A DNA stretch of 64,000 nucleotides from a virus: positions 32,001-96,000 of the IMG/VR virus record IMGVR_UViG_3300048883_000431. One strand, 5' to 3'. Positions 11,527 through 29,884 of this stretch are shown here, one piece after another. A model generated the notes under the pieces. That model saw nothing but the letters and a program-made list of their open reading frames with translations. It made no database searches and was not told the DNA's origin. The position numbers and the translations under genes were made by a program. The stretch's first letter is position 1; the number at the start of each line of letters is the position of its first letter.

Positions 11527-14500
11527 ATGGCGCTAGTCCGCATTGCCATTCAGGCCCACTCGACCGGCTTCGACAAGGCCGCCCGGGACGTCAACCGGGC
11601 GGTCACTGATGCTGAGAACGCTCTCACACAGCACGCTCAGGGTGCCCTTGCGAACCTGGAGCGCCAGGCCGACAATGCGCTCATCGCGGTTCGCGGCGTC
11701 ACCGCCAAAATCTCCCAGGAAGGCAAGATCGAGGACCTCCCCAGGGCCTTTGAAGAGGCCACGAGGACGTTCAAGGACTTCGCGGAAGCGAGCCGTGGCG
11801 GTGTCCAGAACCTGAAGCTGATGAAGCAGACGATCAACGGCATCACCTTCGAGTTCGATGCCATGGCGAATGCTGCCGAGAACGTCGGACGCACGTTCAC
11901 CGCCGCCGGTCAGAAGGCCGTCGACCAGGCACGCGACCAGCTTGAGCTCGAAGAGAAGATCATCCGGGCCAGGGAGCGCTCGGCGCAGGCGTTCACCGCC
12001 TCACGCGCGCAGATCGACCGGGCGGGCGGCGTCCTTGCCAGTGACATGGGCCAGCAGGCGGCCATCAACGATCCCGCCGTCCAGGCCGCGCGTATCGCCT
12101 CGGGACAGGCGCGTGCGCGTCAGACCACCGCAGCGGATGCGCTCGCCGTCGGTCAAGGAACCATCGGCAGGGGGGAGCACGTCGCGGATGTACGGAAGGA
12201 GATTCGGGTACAGACCGAGCTCAACCGGAAGATGGCGAAGGCCCTCGCTCTCCAGGAGCAGCTCAACGACGCGTTCAACTTCGGGAACCGCACCGCCGCG
12301 ACCCGCGCAAAGACCAAGGCGCTCAACAAGCAGAACGTCGAGCTACGTGAAGGACAGGATCGTGTGGTGGCGCTTCGGAAGGCGGTCGTCAGCCTCGACC
12401 GTGTGCTGGAGGAGGGGGACACCGAGGTAGACGCCCTCACCCACAGCATGGAGTTCCTTACGGCCGAGTCGGGAAAGGCCGCCAAGAAGCTGGCGTCGCT
12501 CCAGATCGCACTGGACCGTCTGAATGTAAAGGGCGGGGGGTCGAAGGTAGACCGGCAGGCGCTGAAGGAGAAGATCGAAGAGCAGCAGGCTCTCCTCCGG
12601 TCGATTGAGAAGGTGCGTCGGACTGGACTGGGCGGGAGCATTCCGGGGCCTGGCGCGCGTCCCTTCGGCGACCTTGAGTCCAAGAGCCTCCGGGAGCTCC
12701 AGGTCGAGATCGACAAGCTCGACAAGAAGAACCAGAAGGCCGCCGATAGCACGCAGGAACTCAGGACTGAGATTCACGAGCTTCGCGGGGAGGAGCTGGA
12801 GAAGGCCGACGAGGCCGTTCGTGTGCTGGACCGTCGGCTGACGGACGTGGCCGAGACGATTGAGACCAAGGACGTCACCGCGCTCAGGAAGCTCGAACTC
12901 GCACTCGAACGGTCGTCCAAGGAATTCGACGATCTCAGGATCAAGGCTGACAAGGCCGAGGACAAGCTGCGCATCGCGCTCGAAGCGGGTATCGAGGAGC
13001 CCGCGCGCCAGGCGGAGAAGGAACTCAAGGACCTGGAGAAGCAGCTCGACAGGGTGACGACTGCGGGGGAGCGCACCACGCGTGAGATGCGCGAGCTTGC
13101 GTTGTCGACCATCCGCTCCGGCGGTGACGTATCGAACATCGACGCGCCCGGCTTTCGGAAGGAGGGAACGGGCGGTGGGCGTGGGGGCGGTGGGCGTGCC
13201 CAGCGTGGTACCGTAGACTTCACCGACGTCAAGAGGGAGGTGGATAAGAAGAACCCCTTCGGCGGGTTCTCCCGATTCGGTTCCAAGGTCCTCATCATCA
13301 CCGGGCTGGTGTACACCGCGCTCGGTCTCGCGCAGGCCGCCTTCCGTGGGTTCACGTTCGCGGCTAACTCCGTGGCTAAGGCGGAACGATTCAGCGACAC
13401 CCTGAACACCTACATCAATCTTTCGGAGGAGTCCGGGACCGGACTCGAATCCCTCGGGCGCGTGTTCAACGCACTGGGCGGTACCGTCGACCGCTTCTCG
13501 GTAGTCACGGCGGCCGCGAAGGCGCGCATGTCGGGACTGGCCGAGGAGACCATCCCGCAGATCGCGCAGGCGGCGCGTATCCTGTCGCGCGCGGTGGGTG
13601 TTGAGGTGACCGAGGCGTTTGACCGCCTGTCACGTGGTATCGCGAAGCAGGAAGTTGAGATTCTCGACGAACTCGGGATCATCGTGCGCCTGAACGACGC
13701 CCTGGAGAAGTGGGCGTTGAAGAACGGACGCACCGTGGAGAGCCTGAGCGCGCAGGAGCGACAGGTCGCCTTCGCGAACGAGGTGCTTGGTGTTCTTGCC
13801 GCACGGTACGCCCAGATCGGCACGCAGATGACCCGGACGTCCGACAAGCTGGACATCTTCAAGGCGCGCTGGGCCGACCTCAGCATCACGATGTCCCACG
13901 GACTGCGTGGCTGGGCCGCCGTTGGGCTTGGGCTCGGGAACTTCGCCGCGAACATCCTTGAGGGCGTCTTCCCGGCCACGCTGAAGATGAAGACCCGGAT
14001 GGAGCTACTGGATTCGGTTGTCCAGAACTTCGGGACGAGTCTAGAGGGTGTGATGGGGCGTAGGGGTACCATCGCGGACGCCATCGCCCAGATCGAGCTG
14101 ATGTCCGCCGGTATTCGTGCGGCGTCTCCTGGGAGCCTCCTCTATCAGGAGCGTCTTGACGAGATGAACCGTGTGCTCGGTAAGATGGTGGTCACGTTCC
14201 CCGAGCTCAACACCGTGATCCGAAGCACGAACTTCCTGCTCAAGGGAAGCACCGACGAGCTACGCAACTCCTTGATCGTCCTTCAGTCCGAGTTCGAGGT
14301 TCTGAGGAAGGCGTCGAATGAGAAGCGCGGCAAGGCGTTCGCCTCCCTGCAGCTTGAGATCGTAATTCTTACCGAGCAGCTCCAGGGCGCAATCGAGAAA
14401 AGAGACGATCTTTTCTTATCAGCCCCATTTGAGTTCAAGGCCATGGCGAAGGCCCGCAACGAGGTAGCCCTCCTGACGAACGAGCTCTCGTCGCTCCAGG

Positions 14501-17500
14501 GGATGTTCGGGGGCGGGAACCTCACTGGCGCGAAGCTGGGTCCCGTTGGCGAGGCGGCGCTCACCAACCTGACTCAGATTTTCCAGGGACTCGACGTGGG
14601 CACACGTCTCGGTGGGGTCGGGGGTGTGGACAGCGACCAGCGGAAGCGCGTGGCGAACCGAGTCGAGCAGTTGATGAGCTCGCTGGGTCCATCGGTGGAG
14701 CAGGGCATCCTGACGGAAAGAGCGGCGGAAGGTATTCGCGGGCAGTCCGTGGCCTTCATCTCGGGGGATCGAAACGAGGCGATGCGCGCCGTCAGCCAGA
14801 TGCTCGACATCCTCTCAGAGGGCGTGGAGAACGCGGCCCCCGACGCGACCAAGGCGTTCATGTTCGACCTCTTCAATGACCTCCGGGAGTCGGCCCTCCG
14901 TGCATTCGTCGACGCCGGGGGAAGAACCGGGGGAAGCGGCCTCGACCCGACCAAGACCCTGAAGGAGATCATCGAGTCGCGGCGTCCCGGCGGGCAGCGT
15001 TCCTTTGACATTCCCATACCCTTCACCGAGGCGTCGCGGCGCGGGCGCGCTGCGCTCAGTGGCAGTATCGTGCCCCTGGGCGGCATCAAGGCCGCGACGG
15101 CGCAGGCAACGCTGGCCGAGACGCTGGCGAAAATGGTCATCGAGGGCGAGGGTATCGCCAAGTCCAACACGGAACTACAGGGACTCACGGCGGCGTTCAT
15201 CAAGGGTGAGCGTGCGAGGCTCGCCCAAGAAATCCTCGACATCAGGGAGCTCACGCAGCTCAAGGTCACTGCCAAGGAGCAGGCCATTGAGGAAGCGCGC
15301 ATCACGGAGCTCATCAGGAAGGCCACCACGAAGTCTAAGCAGACCGAGCTCGACATCTCCGAGACGACCAACAGTATCATCCGCAACCGGGTGAGCACGT
15401 TCGCGCAGTCCGCTGGTAACCGTCCGGTGGGTAAGCTGGGTAAGGTCGTCGAGGGACTCCAAGCGGATGTCCTGACTCGCGAGGGCGACCTGAGCGCCCA
15501 AGTCCTCGCCGCACAGCAGAAGGAAGTCGAGGCACGCCTCGCCTCGGAGTCCGCCACAGCACGTAAGGCGGTCGCCGACTTCCAGGCCACCATCTCGACC
15601 ACCGTCAAGGGGTTCACCGAGGAGCTGTCCGACCTACGCGCGGCGATCCGCGAGAGCGACAACGAGACCGGCGAGACGGTCACCGCCCTCTCCGACGGCA
15701 TCACGGAGATGACGGAACTTCAGACGCGTGCGGCTGCTAAGGCCAAGGAGCTGGAGACGCTGATCACCAACGACCTCTCCAAACTGATGACCGGCGACAT
15801 CCCGGCCGCCGTGAAGGCGATGCTAACGACCCTGTTCGCCGTCACCGACACCGTGGGCGACGATGTGCGTGCGCGTGAGTCCCGGTTCCCGGCTCTGTTC
15901 CGCGCTGGCAGCACCGGCTCCGAATCGTCCCTGCGGAACCTCGGCGACGCGCGTACGCGCACGGCCGACAAGCAGGGCGACTTCGCACGACTGTTCAATC
16001 TCACCGGCTTGGGCGACATCTCGGGAATCTCGGGACTGTCCGCCGGGCGGCGTCAGCTCGAAACGCAGGCCAGTGGATTCGAGAACGCGGCGGGGCCGCT
16101 GCGCAAGGTCGCAGACCTGGGCGAGGCTCGTGCGGCGAAGGTCCTGGACCTAATGAACCAGGCGACCAGGGCCGGTAGGGGACAGGGCGACGAGTTCATG
16201 GAGCTCGCCAACATCTACAATTCCCTAGAGGAAGAGTCCGAAAAGCTCCGAGAGGAGTTGGCAGCCCTACAGGTGCAGGCGGACGCGACGCGCGTCACGG
16301 GAACCGACCTTCTGGCGGATTCGGCAACGCGACTTGCGGGAGCCCTCGGAACGAACGCAGCCCGCGCAGCGCGGGAAGCATCCCGTAGCCTGGAGGCACT
16401 CACCGGCACCCCGGAGAAGATGGACCGTCTCCGCGCGATCATGGGCGGACGGGCAGCGGACGTCTCCGCGAACCTCGGCGGACGTGGGGATGAGTTTGCG
16501 TTCGGGTCGCCCGCCGAGGTCGACCGCCGCCGCCTTACCCTGGAGACCCAGGTCGAGCAGCTCACGAAGCGGCGCGACGCACTCATCACGAGCACGCGGA
16601 CTGCCAAGGAAGGCGGCGCGTCGAGCGAGTCTCTGAGCGGCGTACGCGCCCAGACACACGAGTTGTCGCGCCAAATCCTGACCCGTCAGGTGATCTTGGA
16701 CGACCTTCTCGTCCAGTCGGACGCTATCCGCGCTTCCATCGTCGCTGGTGACTTCGCCAAGCTCGACATGGACATCCAGAAGGTCGTGGAGTCGGGGAGC
16801 GTCGAGACCATTACCCGCAACATGGGCTTCCTCAACGATGTCCTCGACGAGATGAACGACTTGACCGATGACGAGCGTGGCGGGATCAAGAAGCTGATCG
16901 ACGATCTCGATGGCGCGAAGAAGGCTGCACAGAACGCACGCGAACTCGCCGACGAACTCAAGCGCATCAAGAGTGTGTCGTCCGCCCGACAGGGCGCAAT
17001 ACGCGCCGTGGGCAGTGTGGCTGGCGGGAGGGCCGGTAGTGTGCTTGGCTCGATTGCGGGCATCGTGGGGGGCGTTACCTCGTTCTCCAGCATCGCGGCT
17101 ACGCGCACGGCGTCCCACGAGAGTAACCTCGCCGAGCGGGACGCCGGAACAATCAACCAGGGAACCTTCACCAACAACGAGTCCGCCATCAACACTGTCG
17201 CCACCATGGGCAAGATCGCGGCCGGGGCGGAGCTTGTCGGGCAGGGCATCAGCATCGCCACCACGGCCTGGTCGATGTTCAACGCGCGTGCTGAGGCAGC
17301 CAAGCAGAAGGTGCGTGAGATTCAGGAAGCCGCCAACGCGATGGGTGACGCCATCGCAGGTGGCATCGCGGCGGGCTTTGATGAGGGAGCGCAGTCGTTC
17401 GACGACTTCATGCGCAACTTCCTCCTGAACGAGTTTAGAACGAACCTCGCGGAGACTGTGCTGGAGACGTCAGGGATACGCGCGTTCACCGACGACCTGG

Positions 17501-18195
17501 CGGCCACCAAGACCCTCCTCGCGGATACGACCGACAGGGTTGACGAAATCCTTGTGCAAAACAAGGGACTCAACAAGTCCATCACCCCGGACGTCCTGAC
17601 TAACCTCAGCAAACTGGACCCGGCACTACTGCAGAACGCTAAGAACCTCACGGCACTCCAACGCCTAACCATCCTCAAGAACGCGGGGGCCGTACTACCA
17701 CAGAATGAGTTCGGGGATACGATCCCCCAGGGGACGACGGAATTCCTACAGACCCTCGGAAACGAGTTGGCCACGCGTGCGAAGCTCGGTGGGCAGCTCC
17801 AGGACGCGGCCGGGGAGGTCGAGGGGTTCAGCGAGGCCATCGCGGGTGTCCAGCCGATCTTCGACGGGTTCCGGGAGGCGCTGGGACTGAGCACTGGCGC
17901 GGTGAAGGGCGTGTCCGAGATCGCGACGTCCACGTTCCGCGCTGTCACCGAGCCACAGGCGAACCTGTTGCTCAGTGCCACCATCGAGATGCGCGACCTG
18001 CAGGTCCAGATCGAGTTCAACACACGGCGCACTGCGGAGGTCCTCACACACGACATCCTCGGCGCGCTGTTGGCGAACGGGTTCAACGCGGGCGCAAGAG
18101 AGCCAGAGGACGTTCCGACAACCCCCGCAAACCTGAAGCTCGGTGACCTGAAGCAGGGGGCCGAGCAGGTCCAGAACGGTCAGGGAGTCCTCTGA
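11527..18195 (+). CDS. tape measure protein (2222 aa)
   Basis: Very long Ala/Glu-rich helical ORF after the chaperone; GIAKQEVEILDELGI TMP motif; hydrophobic segments. Confidence 0.92.
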   Translation: MALVRIAIQAHSTGFDKAARDVNRAVTDAENALTQHAQGALANLERQADNALIAVRGVTAKISQEGKIEDLPRAFEEATRTFKDFAEASRGGVQNLKLMKQTINGITFEFDAMANAAENVGRTFTAAGQKAVDQARDQLELEEKIIRARERSAQAFTASRAQIDRAGGVLASDMGQQAAINDPAVQAARIASGQARARQTTAADALAVGQGTIGRGEHVADVRKEIRVQTELNRKMAKALALQEQLNDAFNFGNRTAATRAKTKALNKQNVELREGQDRVVALRKAVVSLDRVLEEGDTEVDALTHSMEFLTAESGKAAKKLASLQIALDRLNVKGGGSKVDRQALKEKIEEQQALLRSIEKVRRTGLGGSIPGPGARPFGDLESKSLRELQVEIDKLDKKNQKAADSTQELRTEIHELRGEELEKADEAVRVLDRRLTDVAETIETKDVTALRKLELALERSSKEFDDLRIKADKAEDKLRIALEAGIEEPARQAEKELKDLEKQLDRVTTAGERTTREMRELALSTIRSGGDVSNIDAPGFRKEGTGGGRGGGGRAQRGTVDFTDVKREVDKKNPFGGFSRFGSKVLIITGLVYTALGLAQAAFRGFTFAANSVAKAERFSDTLNTYINLSEESGTGLESLGRVFNALGGTVDRFSVVTAAAKARMSGLAEETIPQIAQAARILSRAVGVEVTEAFDRLSRGIAKQEVEILDELGIIVRLNDALEKWALKNGRTVESLSAQERQVAFANEVLGVLAARYAQIGTQMTRTSDKLDIFKARWADLSITMSHGLRGWAAVGLGLGNFAANILEGVFPATLKMKTRMELLDSVVQNFGTSLEGVMGRRGTIADAIAQIELMSAGIRAASPGSLLYQERLDEMNRVLGKMVVTFPELNTVIRSTNFLLKGSTDELRNSLIVLQSEFEVLRKASNEKRGKAFASLQLEIVILTEQLQGAIEKRDDLFLSAPFEFKAMAKARNEVALLTNELSSLQGMFGGGNLTGAKLGPVGEAALTNLTQIFQGLDVGTRLGGVGGVDSDQRKRVANRVEQLMSSLGPSVEQGILTERAAEGIRGQSVAFISGDRNEAMRAVSQMLDILSEGVENAAPDATKAFMFDLFNDLRESALRAFVDAGGRTGGSGLDPTKTLKEIIESRRPGGQRSFDIPIPFTEASRRGRAALSGSIVPLGGIKAATAQATLAETLAKMVIEGEGIAKSNTELQGLTAAFIKGERARLAQEILDIRELTQLKVTAKEQAIEEARITELIRKATTKSKQTELDISETTNSIIRNRVSTFAQSAGNRPVGKLGKVVEGLQADVLTREGDLSAQVLAAQQKEVEARLASESATARKAVADFQATISTTVKGFTEELSDLRAAIRESDNETGETVTALSDGITEMTELQTRAAAKAKELETLITNDLSKLMTGDIPAAVKAMLTTLFAVTDTVGDDVRARESRFPALFRAGSTGSESSLRNLGDARTRTADKQGDFARLFNLTGLGDISGISGLSAGRRQLETQASGFENAAGPLRKVADLGEARAAKVLDLMNQATRAGRGQGDEFMELANIYNSLEEESEKLREELAALQVQADATRVTGTDLLADSATRLAGALGTNAARAAREASRSLEALTGTPEKMDRLRAIMGGRAADVSANLGGRGDEFAFGSPAEVDRRRLTLETQVEQLTKRRDALITSTRTAKEGGASSESLSGVRAQTHELSRQILTRQVILDDLLVQSDAIRASIVAGDFAKLDMDIQKVVESGSVETITRNMGFLNDVLDEMNDLTDDERGGIKKLIDDLDGAKKAAQNARELADELKRIKSVSSARQGAIRAVGSVAGGRAGSVLGSIAGIVGGVTSFSSIAATRTASHESNLAERDAGTINQGTFTNNESAINTVATMGKIAAGAELVGQGISIATTAWSMFNARAEAAKQKVREIQEAANAMGDAIAGGIAAGFDEGAQSFDDFMRNFLLNEFRTNLAETVLETSGIRAFTDDLAATKTLLADTTDRVDEILVQNKGLNKSITPDVLTNLSKLDPALLQNAKNLTALQRLTILKNAGAVLPQNEFGDTIPQGTTEFLQTLGNELATRAKLGGQLQDAAGEVEGFSEAIAGVQPIFDGFREALGLSTGAVKGVSEIATSTFRAVTEPQANLLLSATIEMRDLQVQIEFNTRRTAEVLTHDILGALLANGFNAGAREPEDVPTTPANLKLGDLKQGAEQVQNGQGVL

Positions 18196-18216
18196 ACTCC
18201 GCCGTCTAACCTGGAG

Positions 18217-18245
18217 TTCGCAAAACGGAGCGCGCGTGCTATAAT
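18217..18245 (+). promoter_or_regulatory. promoter for tail-tip genes
   Basis: TTCGCA, 17 nt, TATAAT with extended TG; preceded by GAACTCC/GGAGTTC hairpin (18194-18219). Confidence 0.6.
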
Positions 18246-18302
18246 AGATGGGGGACAGTCGCCAGTGGCCTTGCCCGAAACACCTTGTATGGGAGTTGTC
18301 CA

Positions 18303-18389
18303 ATGGCGAGTCCAGAGGAACGCGACGTTGTCGTAAACCAGATCACGGTGCCTACGTTCACCGCAGATGTATGGAATGAGTTGTCGTAA
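18303..18389 (+). CDS. 28-aa micro-ORF MASPEERDVVVNQITVPTFTADVWNELS
   Basis: GGGAG RBS; its TAA overlaps the ATG of the next gene (TAATG). Confidence 0.45.
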   Translation: MASPEERDVVVNQITVPTFTADVWNELS

Positions 18390-19531
18390 TGGCGAACCTG
18401 GCGTGGACCAACGCGGGGATACCCGTATCCTACAAGATCAACGGCGTCAACATCCGCGAGGAGTTCGGGGTTGAGATGTCGTTGCCCAACGCCCTTATGC
18501 CCGGCGTTCGCGGACGGACATCCAATCCCTCCCAGACGCACGGGGAGGTTGACAGCGGGGCCTTCTACGGCACACGCCAGTTCTCGGTGACCGGGCGGAT
18601 CATCGCCACAACCCACGCGTTGTTCACGTCCCAGATGGACGAGTTCACCGCGTGGCTTCGACTGGAGGACAACCTCCAGCAGTTCTCGCTTCGGGGGCGC
18701 ACCCTATCGGGTATGCGACTGGAGATCGCGGGTCACGGGCTGGCGGAGCCCAGGACCCTCATCGTCACCTACAGTGGCAATGCCACGATCAGCCCGATCT
18801 CCACCGCCCACTTCAAGGGGCGTGCGTACGACTTCGGGTTGGGGCTGAAGGCGTCCTACCCGTTCTGGCTCACCCAGGAGGAGACGGACGCCCACAGGGA
18901 CACGAGCGCTCACCAGTGGATACGGGTACCGAAGGACACGTCGGGGGCCTTGGGCACGTCCCAAACATACCCCGAATACACACTCGACGGGCCGGTAAGC
19001 GGAGCGAATGTCACCATCGCGCACGGGCGATTCGGACTGAGCGTTCGGTTCAACGACCTGTCGCTGGCGGAGTCGGGTAACGGACTGGCGTTCACCGCGA
19101 CCAACATCTACGGTGACTCGACAGTGGGGACGTTCCAGAACCAAGTGGAGCTCACCGCTGTTGCGTCGACGGAGGGCGAGGGCTCGGGGGAGAGCGTGGG
19201 GCTGCACGGGTCGGCAAGCGGCGGGTCCGGCTCACTCATCAAGCTCCCCATCCGAAACGCGCAGTCACTGGCCGTGAACCCGAATGACTCGCAGGACGCG
19301 GACTACTTCAACGGCGCAGTCGGAACCTTCGGGTGCTTCTTCAAGCCTAACTTCGACATCATAGCGGGCGTGCAGGACAGCGAGAAGCGTAACGTCCTCC
19401 TAAACCTGGGTGCGGCCACGGCGGCGAACAACATGCAGATACGGTTCGCGGATTCGTCGGACAAGCGTGTTGTGGAGCTAAGGACGGTTAACGGCGCGGG
19501 GACGGTCCTGAGCAAGACGAATAACTCGTAA
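18389..19531 (+). CDS. distal tail (Dit-like) protein, N-terminal part, ending within a LamG-like domain
   Basis: First large gene after the TMP; YGTRQFSVTG, LKASYPFW, GTSQTYPEYTLDG Dit pattern; ends GTFGCFFKPNF...VELRTVNG. Confidence 0.7.
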   Translation: MANLAWTNAGIPVSYKINGVNIREEFGVEMSLPNALMPGVRGRTSNPSQTHGEVDSGAFYGTRQFSVTGRIIATTHALFTSQMDEFTAWLRLEDNLQQFSLRGRTLSGMRLEIAGHGLAEPRTLIVTYSGNATISPISTAHFKGRAYDFGLGLKASYPFWLTQEETDAHRDTSAHQWIRVPKDTSGALGTSQTYPEYTLDGPVSGANVTIAHGRFGLSVRFNDLSLAESGNGLAFTATNIYGDSTVGTFQNQVELTAVASTEGEGSGESVGLHGSASGGSGSLIKLPIRNAQSLAVNPNDSQDADYFNGAVGTFGCFFKPNFDIIAGVQDSEKRNVLLNLGAATAANNMQIRFADSSDKRVVELRTVNGAGTVLSKTNNS

Positions 19532-19540
19532 GGATTTGCC

Positions 19541-21841
19541 ATGGCCAAGTCAGCTTCCACTTACCAGGGCTTCCAGGTCCCGGCACTTCAGACCGACACC
19601 ATTGGGTTTGACGACGACTTCGCTGCGTTCAAGACCCACCTCGACGCCGCCCTATCCAGCCACGCCTCGAACATCTCGGGGTCTGCGAACGCGGCGGGCG
19701 GGACCTCCTACGCCAGCAACGCGGGCAAGATTCTCTCGGCGTCGGCGAGCTCTCCGAGCCCTCTAGGACGAGTCTTCCCCCTCTCCGCGAGCACCGACTC
19801 GATTCTGATGTTCCAGGAGAACCCTGGCGGCAACACTGCGGGTAACGACAAGTGGGTCATTGGGTACGACGACTCCAGCGGCTTCTTCGCCATCCACGAC
19901 GCAGCGACTATACCGACGACCATCCGCGACGCGCGGGTGAGCATATCTGCTAACGCGATGTACGTGACGACCAACGACTCGGGCGCGACGGTCAACTCGA
20001 ACTACGACGATCTCGTCGTGGAGGTCGCCGCCACCGGGGGGATCACCATACTCGGCCCGGACGCGACCGAGTTGGGGCTTGTGTTCGGAAACGTCACGCA
20101 GCCAATCAACGCTGCCATCACGATGCAGTCTAACGACAAGCTACGGATGTTCACGTCAGTAGACGACGGCGAGATTAAGTTCGCCACCGACGTGGACTCG
20201 CTGGCCATGACCATCGACAAGAACCAGCATGTCGTCGTCCACAGCGGGTCGCTCACGGTCATTAGGAGCGGTATCCAGTCGGGATCGGACGTCAATATTG
20301 GCGCGGACGACTTGGTTATCGACGCCTCCAACAGTGCCGGGATGTCGATACTTACGAAGGCGAACTTCAGCGCCAGCGTATTCCTCGGGGCCAACGGCTC
20401 GGCTAATGACGCGGCGCGCATACAGTGGGCGGACGACGTGGACCTCTTCCACATAGGCACGAACTACGCTGGCGCTGAGGTCCGACTACGAACGGACACC
20501 AACACCCTCGCTTTGACCCTTGGGTCGGACCAGTCCGCCACGTTCGTAGGGGACGTCGTTGCGGAATCCAACCTTGACGTCGAAGGGTATGCGGCCATCG
20601 GGGACGGGTCCTCCCTCGACGCGGACTGGACCCTGACCGTCGACCGCGACTTCTCGTCCACCACAAACCCCCGTATGCTCAACATCCGTGGGATTATGAC
20701 GGTGACGGCCGGGACAAGCAACCTCTACGGTCTGTTCGCTGACACGTCCATGGTTATCAACTCCGCGTCGGCGGAGGTCCACCCCGAGGTCGCGCAGTTC
20801 TACATCTCGGACCCCGACATCTCCCTGGGGGGCACGTCGCCGGGAACCCTTACCCTGGCCGCAACCCTCCTCGTTGACGGTAAGCCCACCGAGGGTACGA
20901 AGAACGCAGGGATTTGGGTGCAGTCGGGAAGCTCCACTGCCACGCCCGACACCGGGGCCAACACCCTCGTCATCGAGGGGTCCGATCCCGACGGGACGGG
21001 GGCTAGCATACTCTCAGCCAACGGTAAGGAGTCGCGACTGTACTTCGGCTCCCCCGCTGACGGGAATGGGGCTCGAATTACCTGGGGGTATAACGCTGGG
21101 TTGCTATCCATCGCGAGCTATGTGAGCGGGGCCAATGTCGAACTCTTCAGTGGTACAGGGACGGCGGGCATAACGATTGCGGGCAACAGCGGCGACGTGA
21201 CCGTAGACGGCACGACCACCTCGACCGGCGACATTATCGCTGGCGGGGACATCGGGCTTTCCGGCGATCAGGACCTGATCTCCTTGGCGGCGAACCTGGT
21301 GACCGTCAACGGCGCGCTCACGACGACCGGCGTCATCACGACGGCGGACGACCTGATCGTCGATGGAACCAACATCGGGATCACCACAGACCTCGACCTA
21401 ATCACACTCGCGCTGAACTTGCTCACCGTGACGGGTGCCCTGACCGTCTCCCTCGACCTCATCGTGGAGGGGGGCGACATCGGGATCGCCGCCGACACCG
21501 ATCTCCTTGCTCTGGCGGCCAACGCGTTCACGATCAACGGTGCCGTCACCCAGGTCGGCGCGTTCCTCACCTCCCTGGCAGGCGATCTCCTCGTCGACGG
21601 TGGCGACATCGGCATCACGGGGGATACCGACCTCATGCAGCTCTCCAGCGCGGCGCTAACCGTGAACGGCAGCCTAAGCGCCACATCGTTCGTATCGACG
21701 CCCCTCATCTCCCTCACGGGTTCCACCGGGGACTACCTCCAGTTTGACGCGGAAGGCACGGCCCCCAACACCGCCGCCGGAAGCGTTAAGGTGGATGTTG
21801 GCGGGGCGGTTCGGTATCTCATCACATACTCTTCGCTGTAA
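19541..21841 (+). CDS. tail fibre / receptor-binding protein with internal repeats
   Basis: Gly/Ser/Thr/Asp-rich beta repeats: three DDLV(V/I)-G-SIL-FG units and four GGDIG-D-DL-L-TVNG units. Confidence 0.7.
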   Translation: MAKSASTYQGFQVPALQTDTIGFDDDFAAFKTHLDAALSSHASNISGSANAAGGTSYASNAGKILSASASSPSPLGRVFPLSASTDSILMFQENPGGNTAGNDKWVIGYDDSSGFFAIHDAATIPTTIRDARVSISANAMYVTTNDSGATVNSNYDDLVVEVAATGGITILGPDATELGLVFGNVTQPINAAITMQSNDKLRMFTSVDDGEIKFATDVDSLAMTIDKNQHVVVHSGSLTVIRSGIQSGSDVNIGADDLVIDASNSAGMSILTKANFSASVFLGANGSANDAARIQWADDVDLFHIGTNYAGAEVRLRTDTNTLALTLGSDQSATFVGDVVAESNLDVEGYAAIGDGSSLDADWTLTVDRDFSSTTNPRMLNIRGIMTVTAGTSNLYGLFADTSMVINSASAEVHPEVAQFYISDPDISLGGTSPGTLTLAATLLVDGKPTEGTKNAGIWVQSGSSTATPDTGANTLVIEGSDPDGTGASILSANGKESRLYFGSPADGNGARITWGYNAGLLSIASYVSGANVELFSGTGTAGITIAGNSGDVTVDGTTTSTGDIIAGGDIGLSGDQDLISLAANLVTVNGALTTTGVITTADDLIVDGTNIGITTDLDLITLALNLLTVTGALTVSLDLIVEGGDIGIAADTDLLALAANAFTINGAVTQVGAFLTSLAGDLLVDGGDIGITGDTDLMQLSSAALTVNGSLSATSFVSTPLISLTGSTGDYLQFDAEGTAPNTAAGSVKVDVGGAVRYLITYSSL

Positions 21842-21851
21842 GGATTTACGC

Positions 21852-22181
21852 ATGGCAAAGTTCCTATCGGGATACGCCTTCACGGTAAAGGCTACCCTCG
21901 GACCTGACGGGGACACCCGTGTGGTGAGGGTTCGGGCGAGCTACACCCTGGCCGACACCGAGGACGAGCGTCTCAGTACCAAGCGCGACCTCGACCTTGT
22001 ACTGTCCACCGATCCTAGATCGGCGGACGTGGGCGAGAAGGGCCTCGACATCGAGCCCCCGGATGCGGCGATTGAACGGGGCATCGTGTCCGCCATTGAG
22101 AGGTCCATACGTAGGGCGTCCAAGGGGATGGAGTCCCTGCCAATACTTGACGACGAGAAGGAGCCTGTGGCGAGGGGATGA
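21852..22181 (+). CDS. small fibre-associated hypothetical protein
   Basis: AAGGA RBS; starts MAKFLSGYAF; follows the fibre gene. Confidence 0.55.
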   Translation: MAKFLSGYAFTVKATLGPDGDTRVVRVRASYTLADTEDERLSTKRDLDLVLSTDPRSADVGEKGLDIEPPDAAIERGIVSAIERSIRRASKGMESLPILDDEKEPVARG

Positions 22182-22238
22182 GTTGCCGAACGACGTTCCC
22201 CCGAGGTATAGTTCTGCCACACACCACAGGAGCTCCGA

Positions 22239-22649
22239 ATGAAACCCCTCACGATTCCGCTGTCGCGCCTGATCTTTGGTGAGGGGGATGGCCAAGTCGT
22301 ACAGCAGAACGACGCGGTCATAGCCCTTCGCTTCGCGCAGCTTTTCGACTACCTCAAGCACAGTATGGCGGAGAAGCGCGCCGCAATCGAGCTTCGGGAC
22401 GAGGCCACCCGTGCTGTCGACGGGGAGCTGGACACCCTGGAGCTCTCCAAAGACGCGGTCAGACTACTGAGTAAGATCTGCGAGTCCCCGATGGACCATC
22501 TCAAGGAGAAGACGGCGGTCGGCGCGGAAGGAATCGACGTCAAGGAGGGATTCCTCAACACCGACACCGCCCAATCCGCTATACTCAGTCTGGAACCAGC
22601 CTGCAAGGCCGCGCTGGGGGAAGAGGTAGCTACCACGGAGGCTGAGTAA
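22239..22649 (+). CDS. hypothetical protein, possible fibre chaperone
   Basis: AGGAG RBS; helical acidic 136 aa; possible promoter TTGCCG-18-TATAGT at 22183-22212. Confidence 0.55.
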   Translation: MKPLTIPLSRLIFGEGDGQVVQQNDAVIALRFAQLFDYLKHSMAEKRAAIELRDEATRAVDGELDTLELSKDAVRLLSKICESPMDHLKEKTAVGAEGIDVKEGFLNTDTAQSAILSLEPACKAALGEEVATTEAE

Positions 22650-22651
22650 CC

Positions 22652-25267
22652 ATGTCGGAGATCTACGTCCAGGAGGGCGTCTGGCACCACCTCGCCGTGG
22701 TGTGGGACGATAACGCGAACACCTCTGCCATCTACATCGACGGTGTGGAGGTGTTCGCGGGGACTGCCACCAGCGGAAACTTGCCCACGGTGTCCTCCCT
22801 CCAGAACGTGATGGGGATTGGCGGGCTCGTTGGGGGCTACGGCGCAACCTCCGTTCAGGAGCTCTCCGGCGGGGACAGCATCGAATCCGACATCGACGGC
22901 CCCACGATATGGGGCAAGGCCCTCACCGCCACCGAGATTCTTCGACTGTTCACGGCGTCTGGCAGTCCCGTCGTTGCCGATGGGTCCGCACAGATCGCGG
23001 CCAAGGGGTCCAGCTTCCGCGTAGCGCCCTCCCATATCCTTGCCCACGTTCCTTTTGACGACGACGAGTCGCTATCGCTTACGTCCAGCCTGGTGGCCTC
23101 CACGCAGCTCATTAAGTACCTCGGCACAGGGTTCGGCGGACGTTACAACATCGGAACGTCCTCGGGGGCCGGCGCGACAAACGTCTACCTCGATCTCCTA
23201 AGCTCCCTCGCGAACACGGACACGAACGAGACCGACCAGCCCATCTTTTGGACCGACCACTTCCGCACCACAAGCCCGCAGAACCTGTATAGGTTGTACA
23301 ACCGTGCGACGAGCGGGGCGATGGACTCGGAGATAGTAAGCGCGGCCTCCTGGGCAGAAGGCTCTCACCTACTCACCGTGTCCGACGATCTAAACGCTAC
23401 GTACGACAAGGATGTCGGGCAGCTACAGCGCAACCTCATTGCCGACGGCGACTTCGAGATTCCGGGCGGGTTTGGGTCAAGCTCCTACTGGGCTGATGTT
23501 GGAGGAGCAACGACCAGCAGGCAGACCGGGGCACTCGTCTCGCAGGGACAGGCCTCCGCGAAGATAGTCAGCGCCGGATCGGCCGAAGGAACCTCCCAGG
23601 ATTTGAGGGGTGGGTACGCCTCGACTTCGGGGAGTACCTACAACTCAACGGACTGGGTGGCCTTCTTCGACTTCTACCCAACTATGGCGGTCAGTGGCTC
23701 CGGAGCCATCAGCTTCTTGGAAACCTCGTCGACCACGAGCACGACCGGTCTCTACTATGTAGCATTCGACCAGAAGACCGAGTGGGGCGATGCGATTGCG
23801 CAGGACTCGTGGAACCAGATGGTGTATGTCCACACCGGAAACGCTTACGACGCCGAGAACTACTTCCACCTCATAAACCCCGCGTCCGGGACCGCCTACT
23901 ATGACAACGCGCAGCTTCTGATGAGTGAGATTGTCGAGGGGAACTTCCACCTCGGGACTAACGGGAGCTGGAGTGCGTCAGGAACGGCCGCCGCACACTG
24001 GAGCATTCTTGCGGCGGGGGGGTTCGGGGTGTTCGCCGAGAGGTCCCACGTCGGGGCCAGATACGGGACTGTTGCGCTACCGGTGGAGGCCACCACAGAT
24101 ATAACGCAGACGTTCAGCCTGGCGTCGAGGGGCAGTAGGCGGTTCCTTGCGACCGTGTACGCCAAGCTCATAGACGGCGACGCCGTCACTGCCACGCTGG
24201 CGGTGAAGGACGACGGTGGGACCACCCTCGCAACCGTCTCCGAGTCCCTTACCACCGTCGCGGCCACTGGGGACTACACCAAGCTCTCGGTCCTGTTCGC
24301 CGCAGACACTGACGCTGGCTCTAACCACGACATGGTGGTGACCATCACGGGGGATGCCGGTGACGTGGTGTACCTCGCCACCGCCTACGTCATCGAGATG
24401 ACCGCGATCCCCGGCGAGGTCCGTGTGATGCCCGAGGAGCACGCCATCGTCCCCACGAAGGATCGCGCGGGCGCGCAGTTCGTGCCGGGCAACCAGGGAC
24501 TTTCGTTCAGCACGACGTACCTCAACCCGAACGAAGCCGGGTTCCTCGTCCGATTCCGACCTCAGTTCTCCAGCGATCTGAACGAGGCGACGCCGCGCGC
24601 ACTGTTCGACTGGAAGGTCGACGCCAATAACGCGGTGAGTCTTTCCTACATATCGGGGGTATGGGAGTCCACCTGGGAACAGGGCGGCACGGACAGGGAC
24701 GTGACCCCGGCCACCGTCACTGCGTTCGGGCACGACGACCTCATGGAGCTTTCCGGGTGGTTCGATACCGAGGGTCGGAGTATCGACGGTACGACCTACT
24801 ACGGGAAACTGTTCCTAAACGGTGAGGAGATAGGGAGCACCACCACCGCGTGCCCTGCTATGAGCGCCTCCCTGGCCACCGCGTACGTGGGGTCCGACAG
24901 CAGCGCGAACTCCGCCGCGAGCGTCATAGACGAAATCTATCTGATGACACAGGCCCCGACCGACCTGGAGTGCAAGGGGTTCTACGTCCAGGGCGACGCA
25001 CTACACAACGATAATCGGGACTTCTCGTGGATCGCGACCACCAACGCGGGGGACCACATCCGTCTCGACACCTTCACGCAGACGTTCGAGGTCTACAATA
25101 CGCCGGACATCCCCGAAGGCGCGGGGGACTTGGCCACGAGGAGCGCGCTCACCGCCGCGACCGGGGTTCCGCCGTCGGTCAAGCCGTACGGCTCCCGAAA
25201 GGGTTGGGTGGTTGTGGACAAGAACGTGAAGGAACTTAGGATCACCTACCGCAAAGAGTTCATATAA
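22652..25267 (+). CDS. LamG/carbohydrate-binding tail protein; apparent C-terminal part of Dit
   Basis: Begins with the second half of a LamG domain (WHHLAVVWD, IYIDG); NLIADGDFE CBM-like; second LamG; ends HIRLDT...LRITYRKEFI like Dit C-termini. Confidence 0.7.
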   Translation: MSEIYVQEGVWHHLAVVWDDNANTSAIYIDGVEVFAGTATSGNLPTVSSLQNVMGIGGLVGGYGATSVQELSGGDSIESDIDGPTIWGKALTATEILRLFTASGSPVVADGSAQIAAKGSSFRVAPSHILAHVPFDDDESLSLTSSLVASTQLIKYLGTGFGGRYNIGTSSGAGATNVYLDLLSSLANTDTNETDQPIFWTDHFRTTSPQNLYRLYNRATSGAMDSEIVSAASWAEGSHLLTVSDDLNATYDKDVGQLQRNLIADGDFEIPGGFGSSSYWADVGGATTSRQTGALVSQGQASAKIVSAGSAEGTSQDLRGGYASTSGSTYNSTDWVAFFDFYPTMAVSGSGAISFLETSSTTSTTGLYYVAFDQKTEWGDAIAQDSWNQMVYVHTGNAYDAENYFHLINPASGTAYYDNAQLLMSEIVEGNFHLGTNGSWSASGTAAAHWSILAAGGFGVFAERSHVGARYGTVALPVEATTDITQTFSLASRGSRRFLATVYAKLIDGDAVTATLAVKDDGGTTLATVSESLTTVAATGDYTKLSVLFAADTDAGSNHDMVVTITGDAGDVVYLATAYVIEMTAIPGEVRVMPEEHAIVPTKDRAGAQFVPGNQGLSFSTTYLNPNEAGFLVRFRPQFSSDLNEATPRALFDWKVDANNAVSLSYISGVWESTWEQGGTDRDVTPATVTAFGHDDLMELSGWFDTEGRSIDGTTYYGKLFLNGEEIGSTTTACPAMSASLATAYVGSDSSANSAASVIDEIYLMTQAPTDLECKGFYVQGDALHNDNRDFSWIATTNAGDHIRLDTFTQTFEVYNTPDIPEGAGDLATRSALTAATGVPPSVKPYGSRKGWVVVDKNVKELRITYRKEFI

Positions 25268-28200
25268 ATGCCATCTGAGCGGTTTTTCCTACAGGTATGG
25301 GACAAGGACGCGAAGCTCGTCACCCACTGGCTCCCCTACGCCCACGACATTGTGGAGGAGGAGGAGCTCAACGTCGAGCACACGCTCAAGTTCAAGCTCC
25401 CCATGTCGGACTCGCGGTCGGCTGACGTCGGGTTCCGTAATATCGTGCGGCTCATCGACGCGGAGAAGGGGTTCTTCGCTACGTCGTGCTCCGGTGTGGA
25501 CGAGGGAGCCAAGACGATAGACGTTCCTGACGCAAGTCGCCTATCCGTGGACGACTACGTCCTCATCTACGACTCCCCGACCACGCCAACCAAGTCGTTC
25601 GTCGCCAAGATACTCGCCGTGGACGGAACAACGCTGACGCTGTCACGGATGGACTTCGTGCCCACCGCAGGGACAGAGTCTGGCGGACGCACCTACGCGG
25701 AGATTGAGGGGGACGCCTACGTCGACTGGGTGGGGCGCGGGTACATCGACCTCCTCGGCGACTCGGGCGTCGCGAGTACCGGGTCGCCGGTAATGAAGTG
25801 GACGGGTAAGACGTTCCGCGTATGGGACGTCCGAGACAGTCGCGGGGCGGACGGAGCCCCCGTCCGGGATGTCACGTGCAACCACATAAGCTACGACCTC
25901 AACGACACACGGTTCCTAATAGACAGTCGAACGGACATCACGTTTGGACTGGCATCCACACAGTCGGTTACCAGCAAGCTCATCACCCCGGAGAGGATAG
26001 TGGACGAGGTCGTCAAGACCCAGAGAACCGCGGCAACCGATTTCTCCAATGGGTGGATCAAGGGCGACATCAGTGCACAACTGACGAAGCGTACGGAGAC
26101 CACCTACTCCGCGTCCGTGGCGATAAGCACGGCATCGAGGACGGTGACGGGAACCGGAACCTCCTTCCTATCGGGGGTACGGCAGGGGAGCCGACTCTAC
26201 ACGATCAACCTCGGGACCCTCAACGCCATTGTCGACTACGTGGTTTCCGACACGGAGCTACTACTCAAGTCCCTCCCACGGTTCACCACGACATCCGCAG
26301 TTATACAGACCGACCCCGACGTCCGCACCTTCGAGTTCGACACCAACGGGAGCCTTCGATCCGCCATCGTCAAGATAGCGGAGGTCTGGCGTGACGACAA
26401 ACAGGACGTCCACCTGACCTACGGCGAGGACAAGTCGATCAACGTGGCGAAGGTGGATAACCCGAACGCATCCGATCCCACCGGGGACATGGAGATACGT
26501 CTCGGGAAGAACCTCCAGTCGTCCTCGCGGAAGCAAGACGTAGCGGGGTTCGGGAACACCGTGTACGCGACGGGCGGGACAAGCGGGTGGGTGGGAGCGC
26601 AAACGGGACAGCACTTTACCATAGGGGGTAATCCGGCCACGCTTCCGTTCCACCGTAACACCCGTGACAAGTTCCGTCTAGACACCCCGACCGAGATACG
26701 TCAGCTACGGTGGGGCGACCCCGTCACGATCATGCACCAGCCCATGAACGTGAACGTGAGCGGGTGGACTGACGACAACGAGATTTTGATTAACTTCCGC
26801 GGGGCAATCCCCACCATATCCAGCGCTCTAGGCGATACGTTCGGCCACCTCGACTCCGACACAACCTACTACTTCCGAGTGGCTCCGGTGGACGCGGACG
26901 GTAAGGAGGGGCCTGCCTCACTGGAGGCCACGGAAACACTGGCCCCTGGGGAGCACTCCGTCATGGTGTCCTACTCGGGGGGCGGGTCTACCTACAGGGT
27001 CTACTTCTCAACCACATCCGGGGAGTACACGGAATACATCACCGACACGGCCTCCCCCTTCCAGCTTACGACCGAGGGAGGGGCCAAGAAGGGCTCCCCC
27101 AAGGACTTCGACGCGACGAGCTACACAAACGGCATGATACTCGTCCGTGACTACGACAGCTCCGGTGCGGGCTCGGTCGTCGACGTGGACATCGGAGCGG
27201 GACAGCTACGGACCATCGAGTCCATGACCAAGGTGGGCCACGTGTCGAACACGGACGAGTCCTCTCTCTACTACCGCGTCAAGACTACCAGCCCTTGGGC
27301 AGTCCTTCCGTCAACCCACTACGATGTCGTCTTGTGCAAGGGCCCCGACGCGTTTATGACTCCCATAACCGGGTTCGGGGTGTTCCAGAAGCGTCTGCCG
27401 TCCGACGGAAGCTACTCCAGCCAGGAGCCCCATGCCACCATCGAGACTGGGTCGGGGGGCCGCCGGTTCAACGCGCGGCTCGGGGACCCGGGGGTGGGGT
27501 ACCAGTCAAGCACCCACGCTTCGGGCTTTGACACGTTCAAGGACCACTACACGGGCGGGGTCATCCAGCTTAGGGACAGTAGGGGGACGTCCGCTACGAC
27601 TAGTTCCCTGGCGGACGATACCCAGCTTGACGGGCAGCAGCGAGTGATACTGTCCAGCGGGCGTGGGAGTCAGAACGAGTCCCACGCGTCGCAGACGGAC
27701 ATGATCGTTAAGTTCAAGAGCCCCGGAACCCTCAACAACCTCCTCCCCCACTACGAGATGACGGGTCCATCGCAGCTTGTGCACGAATACGACGACGGGG
27801 ACTACGACATCACCACGGAAATCGTTACCACCCCAGTCAACGGACTGAGGGTCACGGTGGTCGGGGCGGAGCGCACACGTACGAACACGGTGACCTACAC
27901 CAACTCGGCGTCACAGAAGTACGGGCAGGATCGCGGCGGGGAACTCGACTTCCTTGAGATTTCCGTGGGGGACGAAGTCTACGCGGAGTACGGCGGGGAG
28001 TGGCTGATCGGGAACGTGGGGATGGTCGACGTGGCCAACAAGCGTGTCTGGCTCGACGGCGGGTTTATCAACGGGATGTACACCGGAGGGTCACTCGACG
28101 AGCACACCCCGTCGACGAACGCCCCCATGATTATCCGCAAGCCTCGGCCCAACTTCAACCACGAGTCCGGCATTGGAAACATGTTCCATCCGGTCCTTCA

Positions 28201-29884
28201 CCGGGACAGTGCCGGGGACGGGGATTCGCCGGATTCTGTTCAGGGACACTGCTACTTGGCGGAAGCGGACTACACCGACTCGGGTGGGGATACCGCCTCC
28301 TGGGGGACTGGTGCTGAATCCGACGTCGGCGGGGTCAAGGAGGGGATTGGGCACGCCCTGGAGGTATCCACGCAGAGCGCGATTGAGAACCAGCTCTACC
28401 TTCTTTGGGACGGCGCGGCATCGACCACGCACACCGACATCACCCTCAAAAGGATACTCCTCGTTCGGCCGAACACCTTCACCTGGGTGTCGACCCTACA
28501 GTCCCCCTTCAAGTACGCCGACGGGGATGTTGTCGTTCTTATGATCGCGGAGACCGGCGGTCCCCTAACAATTGGTAAGCGCATTGCGGGGCAGTCCTGG
28601 GTCTACGGGGTCACCGGGGACCTCTCGGAGGACCACGAGTACGGGGGTATCACGGGGACGGCGATCCCGGTCCAGGATGGGCATGGGGTAAGGTTCCCCG
28701 CCGGGTCGCGTGTCTTCATCGGTGCCCAGGCCCCAAACACCGCCATCGAGTACGCCACCCGACGGGGGGACGCTAGGCTCGGGCAGGTACGCGAGGTGGA
28801 CAGTGTGGTAGTGGGCGCGGATCAGTCCCCCACGAGAGCGTTCGACATTCTCAACCTCACGGCGCGTTTGGACACCCTCCCCCAGCCGGGCGACCGGGTC
28901 GAGGTCCTGACGGTGGCGGACGCGGCGTCGATCTCCACCTACGGGCGCGTGGAACGCCCTGCCGAGCACACGGAAATCCTGGACCCCGAGGAGCTCTACC
29001 GGATTGCCCGGAAGGACTTACGACTAGGGAAGGACCCGATCCCACGCTACGAGGTGTCCGTGCTTGATCTGGAGTTTATGAACCCGACCAGTCGATACGA
29101 GTTCGACGGGGCGGTCATCGGGAACACATACAGGATCATAGACAGCGACTACGACCTGGATAGGTCTGACTTCAAGCTCGTGAAGATCAAGCGGGACTAC
29201 GAGACCCCCCTTGAGTCCCGGATGCAGTTCGACCACCACGAGAAGACGCTCATGCGTGGATTCACTCTGTCCACGGAGTTCCGTCTCCGCAAGGAAGCCC
29301 TGGCGAGAGAGCAAGTACGGTACGCCCAGGACTCGCCCAAGTGCATCTACTTCGACACGGTCACCCGACGGTGCAGGAAGGTCAAGCCGCCGAACTCGTT
29401 CTGCAATACGCAGTCGAGCAACCGCGACGGGCGTCTTCGCGGCGACAACGCACGCTTGACCACCAGTGACTGTCGGAACTTCACCCCGCCTGACAACGCG
29501 AACCTGAAATTCTTCAGCCACACGGATTCGCAGAGCTTCACGCTGGGGAGTGGGACCACGAGCCTGTCCTTCGACCTCGACGTGCTCGCCAACCCCGATC
29601 AAGGGACCACGGGGATGCAGTGGGACATCGAGGACAAGCCGAAGCCCGTCGCGTTCGTGACCGACGCCTACTACCTGGACCAGTACTCCAACAAGACGTA
29701 CGTGTCCCCCGGGGACCTCTCCGCCACGTTTGACCAGGACGACGACGGGGAGTTCACACCCAACGACGCTTTCTTCGGTACGGGAGCCCGTGTTACAATA
29801 GCCAGAGCCGGGTCGTTTGACTCCGGCGAGGCGTTGACCATCTTAGGAACACTACTGGTCGTTCTTCCTGGGTCTAGGGCTTAA
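25268..29884 (+). CDS. Tal / tail-tip hub protein with inserted domains (FN3-like)
   Basis: EEELNVEHTLKFKLP, VTCNHISYDL, IRLGKNLQS, NTVYATGG, SISTYGRVE prophage tail motifs; TTYYFRVAPVD FN3. Confidence 0.75.
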   Translation: MPSERFFLQVWDKDAKLVTHWLPYAHDIVEEEELNVEHTLKFKLPMSDSRSADVGFRNIVRLIDAEKGFFATSCSGVDEGAKTIDVPDASRLSVDDYVLIYDSPTTPTKSFVAKILAVDGTTLTLSRMDFVPTAGTESGGRTYAEIEGDAYVDWVGRGYIDLLGDSGVASTGSPVMKWTGKTFRVWDVRDSRGADGAPVRDVTCNHISYDLNDTRFLIDSRTDITFGLASTQSVTSKLITPERIVDEVVKTQRTAATDFSNGWIKGDISAQLTKRTETTYSASVAISTASRTVTGTGTSFLSGVRQGSRLYTINLGTLNAIVDYVVSDTELLLKSLPRFTTTSAVIQTDPDVRTFEFDTNGSLRSAIVKIAEVWRDDKQDVHLTYGEDKSINVAKVDNPNASDPTGDMEIRLGKNLQSSSRKQDVAGFGNTVYATGGTSGWVGAQTGQHFTIGGNPATLPFHRNTRDKFRLDTPTEIRQLRWGDPVTIMHQPMNVNVSGWTDDNEILINFRGAIPTISSALGDTFGHLDSDTTYYFRVAPVDADGKEGPASLEATETLAPGEHSVMVSYSGGGSTYRVYFSTTSGEYTEYITDTASPFQLTTEGGAKKGSPKDFDATSYTNGMILVRDYDSSGAGSVVDVDIGAGQLRTIESMTKVGHVSNTDESSLYYRVKTTSPWAVLPSTHYDVVLCKGPDAFMTPITGFGVFQKRLPSDGSYSSQEPHATIETGSGGRRFNARLGDPGVGYQSSTHASGFDTFKDHYTGGVIQLRDSRGTSATTSSLADDTQLDGQQRVILSSGRGSQNESHASQTDMIVKFKSPGTLNNLLPHYEMTGPSQLVHEYDDGDYDITTEIVTTPVNGLRVTVVGAERTRTNTVTYTNSASQKYGQDRGGELDFLEISVGDEVYAEYGGEWLIGNVGMVDVANKRVWLDGGFINGMYTGGSLDEHTPSTNAPMIIRKPRPNFNHESGIGNMFHPVLHRDSAGDGDSPDSVQGHCYLAEADYTDSGGDTASWGTGAESDVGGVKEGIGHALEVSTQSAIENQLYLLWDGAASTTHTDITLKRILLVRPNTFTWVSTLQSPFKYADGDVVVLMIAETGGPLTIGKRIAGQSWVYGVTGDLSEDHEYGGITGTAIPVQDGHGVRFPAGSRVFIGAQAPNTAIEYATRRGDARLGQVREVDSVVVGADQSPTRAFDILNLTARLDTLPQPGDRVEVLTVADAASISTYGRVERPAEHTEILDPEELYRIARKDLRLGKDPIPRYEVSVLDLEFMNPTSRYEFDGAVIGNTYRIIDSDYDLDRSDFKLVKIKRDYETPLESRMQFDHHEKTLMRGFTLSTEFRLRKEALAREQVRYAQDSPKCIYFDTVTRRCRKVKPPNSFCNTQSSNRDGRLRGDNARLTTSDCRNFTPPDNANLKFFSHTDSQSFTLGSGTTSLSFDLDVLANPDQGTTGMQWDIEDKPKPVAFVTDAYYLDQYSNKTYVSPGDLSATFDQDDDGEFTPNDAFFGTGARVTIARAGSFDSGEALTILGTLLVVLPGSRA

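Follow-up and report, generated by a model that had tools for sequence, protein, structure and literature searches.

A distal tail protein gene divided within a LamG domain by a fibre-gene cassette: two chains predicted to share one fold

The distal tail protein (Dit) is the hub for siphophage tail-tip assembly. In the IMG/VR virus record IMGVR_UViG_3300048883_000431, the gene for such a protein appears as two pieces standing on either side of three other genes, and the locus raises the question of whether the two pieces still make one protein and, if so, by which route. The record comprises 112,229 bp (CheckV completeness 92%), and the window analysed here is a stretch of 64,000 nt from it (positions 32,001 to 96,000, GC ~62%), to which all coordinates refer. 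The reading that we consider probable is that an evolved Dit is made as two separately translated chains, which are not rejoined and which reassemble non-covalently by fragment complementation. The genes concerned are:

18389-19531, + strand: Dit-N (P0001), 380 aa; the open reading frame (ORF) ends with ...SKTNNS, followed by TAA
19541-21841, + strand: fibre-like gene (P0003), 766 aa, a repeat-rich ORF
21852-22181, + strand: 109-aa ORF without a family, coupled to the fibre gene via a repeated junction
22239-22649, + strand: 136-aa ORF without a family, with its stop 2 nt upstream of the Dit-C start
22652-25267, + strand: Dit-C (P0002), 871 aa; the ORF begins with MSEIYVQEGVWHHLAVVWD

As the initial annotation of this DNA had described, both Dit ORFs are intact and in the same frame, 3123 nt apart (from the Dit-N TAA to the Dit-C ATG), and a cassette of three genes lies between the halves. 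Frame 2 is shared by the starts at 18389, 19541 and 22652. An in-frame TGA (22643-22645) stands two codons upstream of the P0002 ATG, and therefore the start of this ORF cannot lie further upstream; GGAGG is found 10 nt upstream of the ATG. The five genes from P0001 to P0002 share one orientation and Shine-Dalgarno coupling, and no terminator-like site was found on the + strand in 18000-25600. For these reasons they are probably co-transcribed, with both Dit pieces made together.

Two halves of one Dit

The domains along the two chains are listed below. The custom LamG hidden Markov model (HMM) was built from six intact LamG domains of unsplit Dits.

18389-18808, + strand: ring-forming N-terminal Dit domain, P0001 residues 1-140 (phrog_33, Sipho_tail, N-termini of unsplit Dits)
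18809-19024, + strand: first half of the peripheral Dit C-domain, P0001 residues ~141-212, boundaries approximate (alignment to unsplit Dits)
19025-19528, + strand: N-terminal strands of LamG-1, P0001 residues ~213-380, ending at a loop (custom LamG HMM, model)
22652-22951, + strand: C-terminal strands of LamG-1, P0002 residues 1-100 (Laminin_G_3, pentraxin 6ype, custom HMM positions 78-165)
22952-24436, + strand: linker and beta-rich decoration domains, putatively similar to carbohydrate-binding modules (CBM), P0002 residues 101-595 (colinear with P0016 residues 924-1447, which carry CBM_4_9)
24437-25006, + strand: LamG-2, a complete LamG-like domain, P0002 residues 596-785 (custom LamG HMM, 77 bits, positions 15-170)
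25007-25267, + strand: canonical Dit C-terminal strands, P0002 residues 786-871 and the stop (phmmer, motif match to the C-termini of alignment A3)

In the proposed arrangement the ring would come from Dit-N, which would also contribute one half (the first) of the peripheral Dit C-domain and the initial strands of the inserted LamG. Dit-C would provide the remaining LamG strands, the lectin/CBM-like decoration domains, the whole second LamG and the Dit C-terminal strands. Profile alignment and modelling suggest that LamG-1 would be rebuilt from both chains without covalent joining. The break would have originated when a 3.1-kb block, made of the fibre-like gene and two small genes, came into the position coding for the LamG-1 loop.

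The first chain, P0001, matches the Dit family phrog_33 over residues 16-210 (E 4.9e-7), and its residues 31-91 match Sipho_tail (PF05709) with E 2.4e-4 and 21.8 bits, just below the Pfam cut-off of 24.2; homologues of P0001 also match the phrog_33 and Sipho_tail profiles. Residues ~141-212 align to P0012 182-275, P0013 261-356 and P0016 268-378, i.e. to the segment just before the LamG insert of these unsplit proteins. Residues 301-380 correspond to positions 9-77 of the custom HMM, and the match runs on into P0002. The description of 18389-19531 as a Dit N-terminus followed by the first half of a LamG fold is thus borne out by the phrog_33 match and by the custom HMM across the junction.

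In the second chain, residues 6-96 of P0002 match Laminin_G_3 (PF13385) only at profile positions 76-150/151 (E 9e-11), and the same half match is given by P0005, a relative of P0002. With a profile made of P0002 and P0005, residues 5-107 correspond to 82-178 of the 205-residue pentraxin 6ype, which is the second half of the jelly roll. Residues 101-595 themselves have no match in Pfam. LamG-2 is homologous to the sole LamG of short unsplit Dits, e.g. P0012 336-532. Over the C-terminal part (786-871), P0002 and the C-termini of unsplit Dits are colinear, with phmmer aligning P0002 up to residue 867-868 of 871, against residue 570 of 573 in P0024 and 1572 of 1576 in P0013; the alignments stop 3-4 residues short of the C-termini of both P0002 and the unsplit Dits. 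The half match to Laminin_G_3, these C-termini and the Prophage_tail match of the following gene agree with the earlier view of the ORF at 22652 as a second LamG half with a Dit-like C-terminus ahead of Tal. A variant of P0002 is also present in a 7,986-nt contig: P0004 (621 aa) is identical over 567 residues and continues in another frame further downstream. This implies a ~100-nt deletion with a frameshift in one assembly (window ~24350-24470), which could be a defective variant or an assembly error.

Unsplit homologues, whose search the initial annotation had proposed, do exist. The full phmmer search with P0001 gave 35 proteins, which were then searched with both ORFs; a homologue search limited to longer proteins gave none for P0001, and a profile search with alignment A1 gave no additional partners. 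Many of the proteins are single chains of 573-1576 aa that match both ORFs, with P0001 ~10-220 at the N-terminus and P0002 ~600-868 at the C-terminus. Examples are P0012 (579 aa), P0024 (573), P0017 (658), P0013 (1576), P0016 (1494) and P0021 (1340). A complete Laminin_G_3 is present in all of them and Sipho_tail and/or phrog_33 in most; P0016, which also contains CBM_4_9, is colinear over the entire series from P0001 to P0002. These sequence comparisons support the view that one ancestral evolved Dit gave rise to both P0001 and P0002 as its halves.

The fold predicted for P0012 has a pLDDT of 84 and a pTM of 0.82 (19-sequence alignment). Its best Foldseek matches are chain M of the Bxb1 tail tip (which would be the Bxb1 Dit), the Douge baseplate and the phage 80alpha baseplate. 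The 483-506 aligned columns against Dits of 290-314 residues are only suggestive of a LamG inserted with Dit core on both sides. Sequence searches of the PDB did not reach the classical Dit structures, and a VIA structural search with the model of P0012 was taken up by ConA-like folds and did not reveal the packing of the C-terminal strands. In alignment A3, the unsplit Dits P0012, P0024 and P0033 contain at residues ~120-190 an inserted domain of ~70 aa, which P0001 does not have; this insert has matches at the N-terminal ends of tail-fibre PHROGs, PDB 23gd_B 'Distal tail protein gp20' and the F2-pyocin side fibre.

The seam in LamG-1

When P0001 and P0002 are joined, residues 301-481 give a single match to positions 9-165 of the custom HMM, gapless at the junction, with 38.2 bits. 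P0002 alone scores 24.9 bits (positions 78-165) and P0001 alone <3 bits; in the reversed-order control the joint match is absent. The related pair behaves alike, with a single match of 25.3 bits for P0006 and P0005 joined and 13.9 bits for P0005 alone. A complete Laminin_G_3 for LamG-1 is thus found in neither single chain, and coverage of the whole domain requires the joined pair. The joined alignment is gapless, and therefore the insertion lies in the loop that immediately precedes the WHHLAV core strand, adding only a stop and a start codon. That the break falls inside a LamG domain, as first noted from the letters, is confirmed by this continuous match over the junction.

The position of the cut is shared by relatives. 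The proteins P0006 (64% identity), P0042 (48%), P0041 (43%) and P0010 (35%) stop at the last alignment column of P0001, and P0005 (50% identity to P0002) starts at the same residue as P0002. Both P0005 and P0006 are found in four contigs each, and for both the longest contig measures 117,857 nt. Between relatives, the identity is 45-49% for the LamG half-domains, close to the 41-60% of the other decoration domains; the most conserved parts are the ring domain (76%, P0001 vs P0006) and the Dit C-terminal strands (66%, P0002 vs P0005). Judged from these sequences, the split, i.e. the positions of stop and start, is old and maintained.

A model of the complex was calculated for P0001 255-380 with P0002 1-112, in three runs and with three controls. 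The ipSAE is 0.62 (0.63, 0.62 and 0.53 in the runs), and the best of the three controls gives 0.00; the mark applied to this score is reached by 58 of 80 solved complexes and by 2 of 110 mismatched pairs. The runs have at least 68% of their contacts in common, with an interface of 342-397 contacts and a partner pLDDT of at least 60. Residues 311-319 of P0001 are modelled antiparallel to 10-18 of P0002 and also touch 86-91. In LamG domains the FFKP strand usually lies against the WHHLAV strand in the hydrophobic core, and the model agrees with this arrangement. Of the two-chain modelling that had been suggested for this locus, the part concerning LamG-1 stands, its sheet being rebuilt, while the AlphaFold2 prediction of P0001 alone (six-sequence alignment) was unusable, with a pLDDT of 36.

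Besides that failed prediction, several other points weigh against two chains sharing one domain. The LamG half in P0001 alone goes undetected in Pfam, and even in the complex model the pLDDT of the P0001 chain is just 50-58. The good score of the complex may reflect the memory that the model has of intact LamG folds, which are well known, and it speaks for likeness to one domain and not for binding. A counterpart of P0002 is known in one relative only (P0005). Completion of the Dit C-domain by the C-terminus of P0002 is suggested by colinearity with single-chain Dits, and the presence of either chain in the virion, like their mutual binding, is a prediction.

These points leave room for another explanation, namely that the LamG halves are leftovers which do not refold together. 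Dit-N alone would then form the ring, and Dit-C would be an independent adhesin or baseplate protein attached in some other way, for example via the Dit C-terminal strands only or via the fibre. P0001 by itself does contain the ring domain, its LamG half is its least conserved part (45% vs 76% for the ring domain), and the confidence of the complex model is moderate. A half beta-sandwich is, nevertheless, unlikely to be soluble, yet the halves show no decay, with indels of no more than 1-2 residues across 35-64% identity. The gapless junction relative to intact domains and the large, domain-like modelled interface, with its controls at 0.00, speak against leftovers too, and we regard this explanation as unlikely. 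Reassembly of two chains by complementation, one of the options named in the initial annotation, is the best supported, by the unsplit homologues, the seamless HMM match, the conserved stop and start, and the complex model.

The cassette and the fate of the break

The cassette bears on whether the two pieces could be rejoined. The fibre-like protein P0003 is rich in Gly, Ala, Ser and Thr and contains four repeats of ~40 aa near its C-terminus (direct repeat family D1, 21226-21634). No Pfam (E <=0.01) or PHROG (E <=5) family was found for P0003 or for either of the small insert ORFs; in the atlas P0003 has neighbours from clusters of viral tails or fibres, and this serves as a lead only. Direct or inverted repeats flanking the cassette were not found. 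The entry into the cassette has the following form:

19529-19549, + strand: junction of TAA, an AAGGA Shine-Dalgarno sequence, a 6-nt spacer and the ATG of the fibre-like gene (sequence reading); it recurs at 21839-21860

The motif of stop, Shine-Dalgarno sequence and start, TAAGGATTT..CATGGC.AAG, occurs exactly twice in the 64 kb, once ahead of the fibre gene and once ahead of the following ORF, while shuffled sequences give an expectation of 0. Both the fibre gene and the 109-aa ORF begin with MAK after these near-identical junctions. The repeated junction could be a duplicated junction or a seam of module exchange.

Rejoining of the halves, which the initial annotation had offered as splicing, ribosomal bypass or excision of the cassette, finds little in its favour other than the common frame of the two Dit ORFs, a coincidence of 1 in 3. 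Rfam, searched over 18000-26000 with E up to 1, gives neither a match nor a group I or II intron structure. No homing endonuclease, recombinase or intein family was detected in the insert ORFs by the Pfam and PHROG scans. Split intein halves (~100 aa and ~35 aa) at the break would show as surplus residues relative to an intact LamG, and neither such residues nor an intein family match is seen. No joint without the cassette is present in the contigs of four runs, although rare forms can escape contig data; in runs X6 and X7 contigs cover the region only as short pieces. The bypass in T4 gene 60 extends over 50 nt (bioRxiv 10.1101/2022.08.31.505936), a distance far exceeded by 3.1 kb. Each ORF has a Shine-Dalgarno sequence and an ATG of its own, the TGA lies in frame just before the second start, and relatives keep both the stop and the start positions. 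Rejoining, whether by intron splicing, intein trans-splicing, bypass or excision, is therefore very improbable.

Readthrough of the TAA at 19529 would give a minor fusion of Dit-N and fibre, with the fibre covalently anchored to the ring. The part of this earlier proposal that holds is that the fibre-like ORF is in frame, three open codons after the Dit-N stop; beyond this frame relation, again a 1-in-3 coincidence, nothing points to it. No signal for readthrough is apparent, a Shine-Dalgarno site of the ordinary type overlaps the stop, and the 109-aa ORF, in a different frame, is preceded by the same junction motif. In run X1, a diverged contig (record 2, 7,113 nt) is colinear with window 18665-19731 through matches of 20-52 nt, and its spacing over the junction of Dit-N and fibre differs by 1 nt (597 vs 596). 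If this difference is intergenic it breaks the frame, a weak hint that the X1 relative may share the junction and not the frame relation. Such a fusion is, in our judgement, hardly to be expected. The X1 relative and this phage are found together in one vent sample, at similar depths (50.8 vs 64.7).

The chance that the locus was misassembled, or is a pseudogene broken only recently, is close to nil. The record is a metagenome-derived contig, yet a 56,808-nt contig, which may itself be the source, spans the region with 0 differences. A second contig of 4,535 nt, independent in sample and study, extends over 18944-23478 with a single difference and bridges both junctions, so that the misassembly feared at the outset is not borne out. 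Relatives down to 35% identity have the same stop and start positions.

Setting, known systems and meaning

The Dit locus lies between a putative tape measure ORF (11527-18195) and an ORF with a Prophage_tail match (starting at 25268). The features around it are:

11527-18195, + strand: 2222-aa ORF, taken as the tape measure gene from its size and position only
18217-18245, + strand: promoter-like site ahead of the Dit-N gene, TTCGCA-17-TATAAT with TG (10/12 in a consensus scan, a pattern match only)
25268-29884, + strand: 1538-aa ORF with a Prophage_tail (Tal-type) match

In the 1538-aa product, the Prophage_tail match is located at residues 1217-1328, vs the N-terminal position usual in Tal proteins. 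The 715-aa protein encoded directly after it (29884-32031) gives two matches to GT9 (heptosyltransferase). Several hydrothermal-vent metagenomes contain near-identical DNA, and the names of the relatives are TARA mesopelagic. A phage collection gave neither a DNA nor a protein match to the query, IMG/VR scans did not find relatives, metagenome scans gave nothing or just one cut contig of 1,314 nt, and the GTDB scan gave LamG proteins only, all unrelated.

In evolved Dits, CBM or lectin modules are inserted in loops of the peripheral galectin domain, as in Lactobacillus phage J-1 and in lactococcal and streptococcal phages (PMC7291167); the distal tail protein of mycobacteriophage Bxb1 also has extra domains (PDB 9d93; PMC13252515). 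Like these, the protein described here is encoded between the tape measure and Tal-like genes and combines a ring with a peripheral domain carrying inserted lectin-like modules, namely the split LamG-1 and the whole LamG-2, with Laminin_G_3 and CBM_4_9 in the unsplit relatives. Unlike them, it is distributed over two genes that stand 3.1 kb apart, the break falls within an inserted module, and its modules are of the LamG/ConA-like type and not CBM of the BppA type. The Lactobacillus, lactococcal and streptococcal phages have lactic acid bacteria as hosts, whereas this phage comes from marine or hydrothermal-vent samples. With respect to LamG and ConA-like jelly rolls (PF13385, pentraxins), the joined halves align end to end, but LamG-1 would here be built from two polypeptides.

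Phage genes in pieces are known from Aeromonas phage Aeh1, in which nrdA is split by the homing endonuclease gene mobE, and from the split DNA polymerases of T4-like phages (PMC3045599, PMC2988022). As in these cases, an essential gene is interrupted and its pieces are translated apart and reassemble without splicing, which for the Dit is a prediction. The inserts in Aeh1 nrdA and the polymerases are homing endonuclease genes in genes for enzymes; here the insert is a fibre-like gene with two small ORFs and no detectable nuclease, and the target is a structural hub of the virion. The interaction segments in Aeh1 come from the mobile element, whereas no residues are added at the break in LamG-1. 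A literature search did not find a paper on a split Dit.

There is a slim chance that the split is an adaptation and not an accident that the phage tolerates. Fibre genes placed inside Dit, with the adhesin-bearing half made as a separate plug-in chain, could then allow the cassette and Dit-C to be exchanged or dosed together, as a single module. If this is true, the LamG seam or the order of translation could govern the mounting of the fibre and the decoration arm on the ring, and split Dits would be a recurrent design principle of tail tips.

A conserved two-chain Dit sharing a beta-sandwich would mean that virion hub proteins tolerate fission within a domain. The split LamG would be a natural split-domain pair, testable as a protein-assembly tag. 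For annotation the locus carries a warning, as a "truncated" Dit and a domain-less adhesin that follows it may function together as a unit. Should splits of this kind prove recurrent, they would represent a route to modular evolution of host range that has been overlooked.

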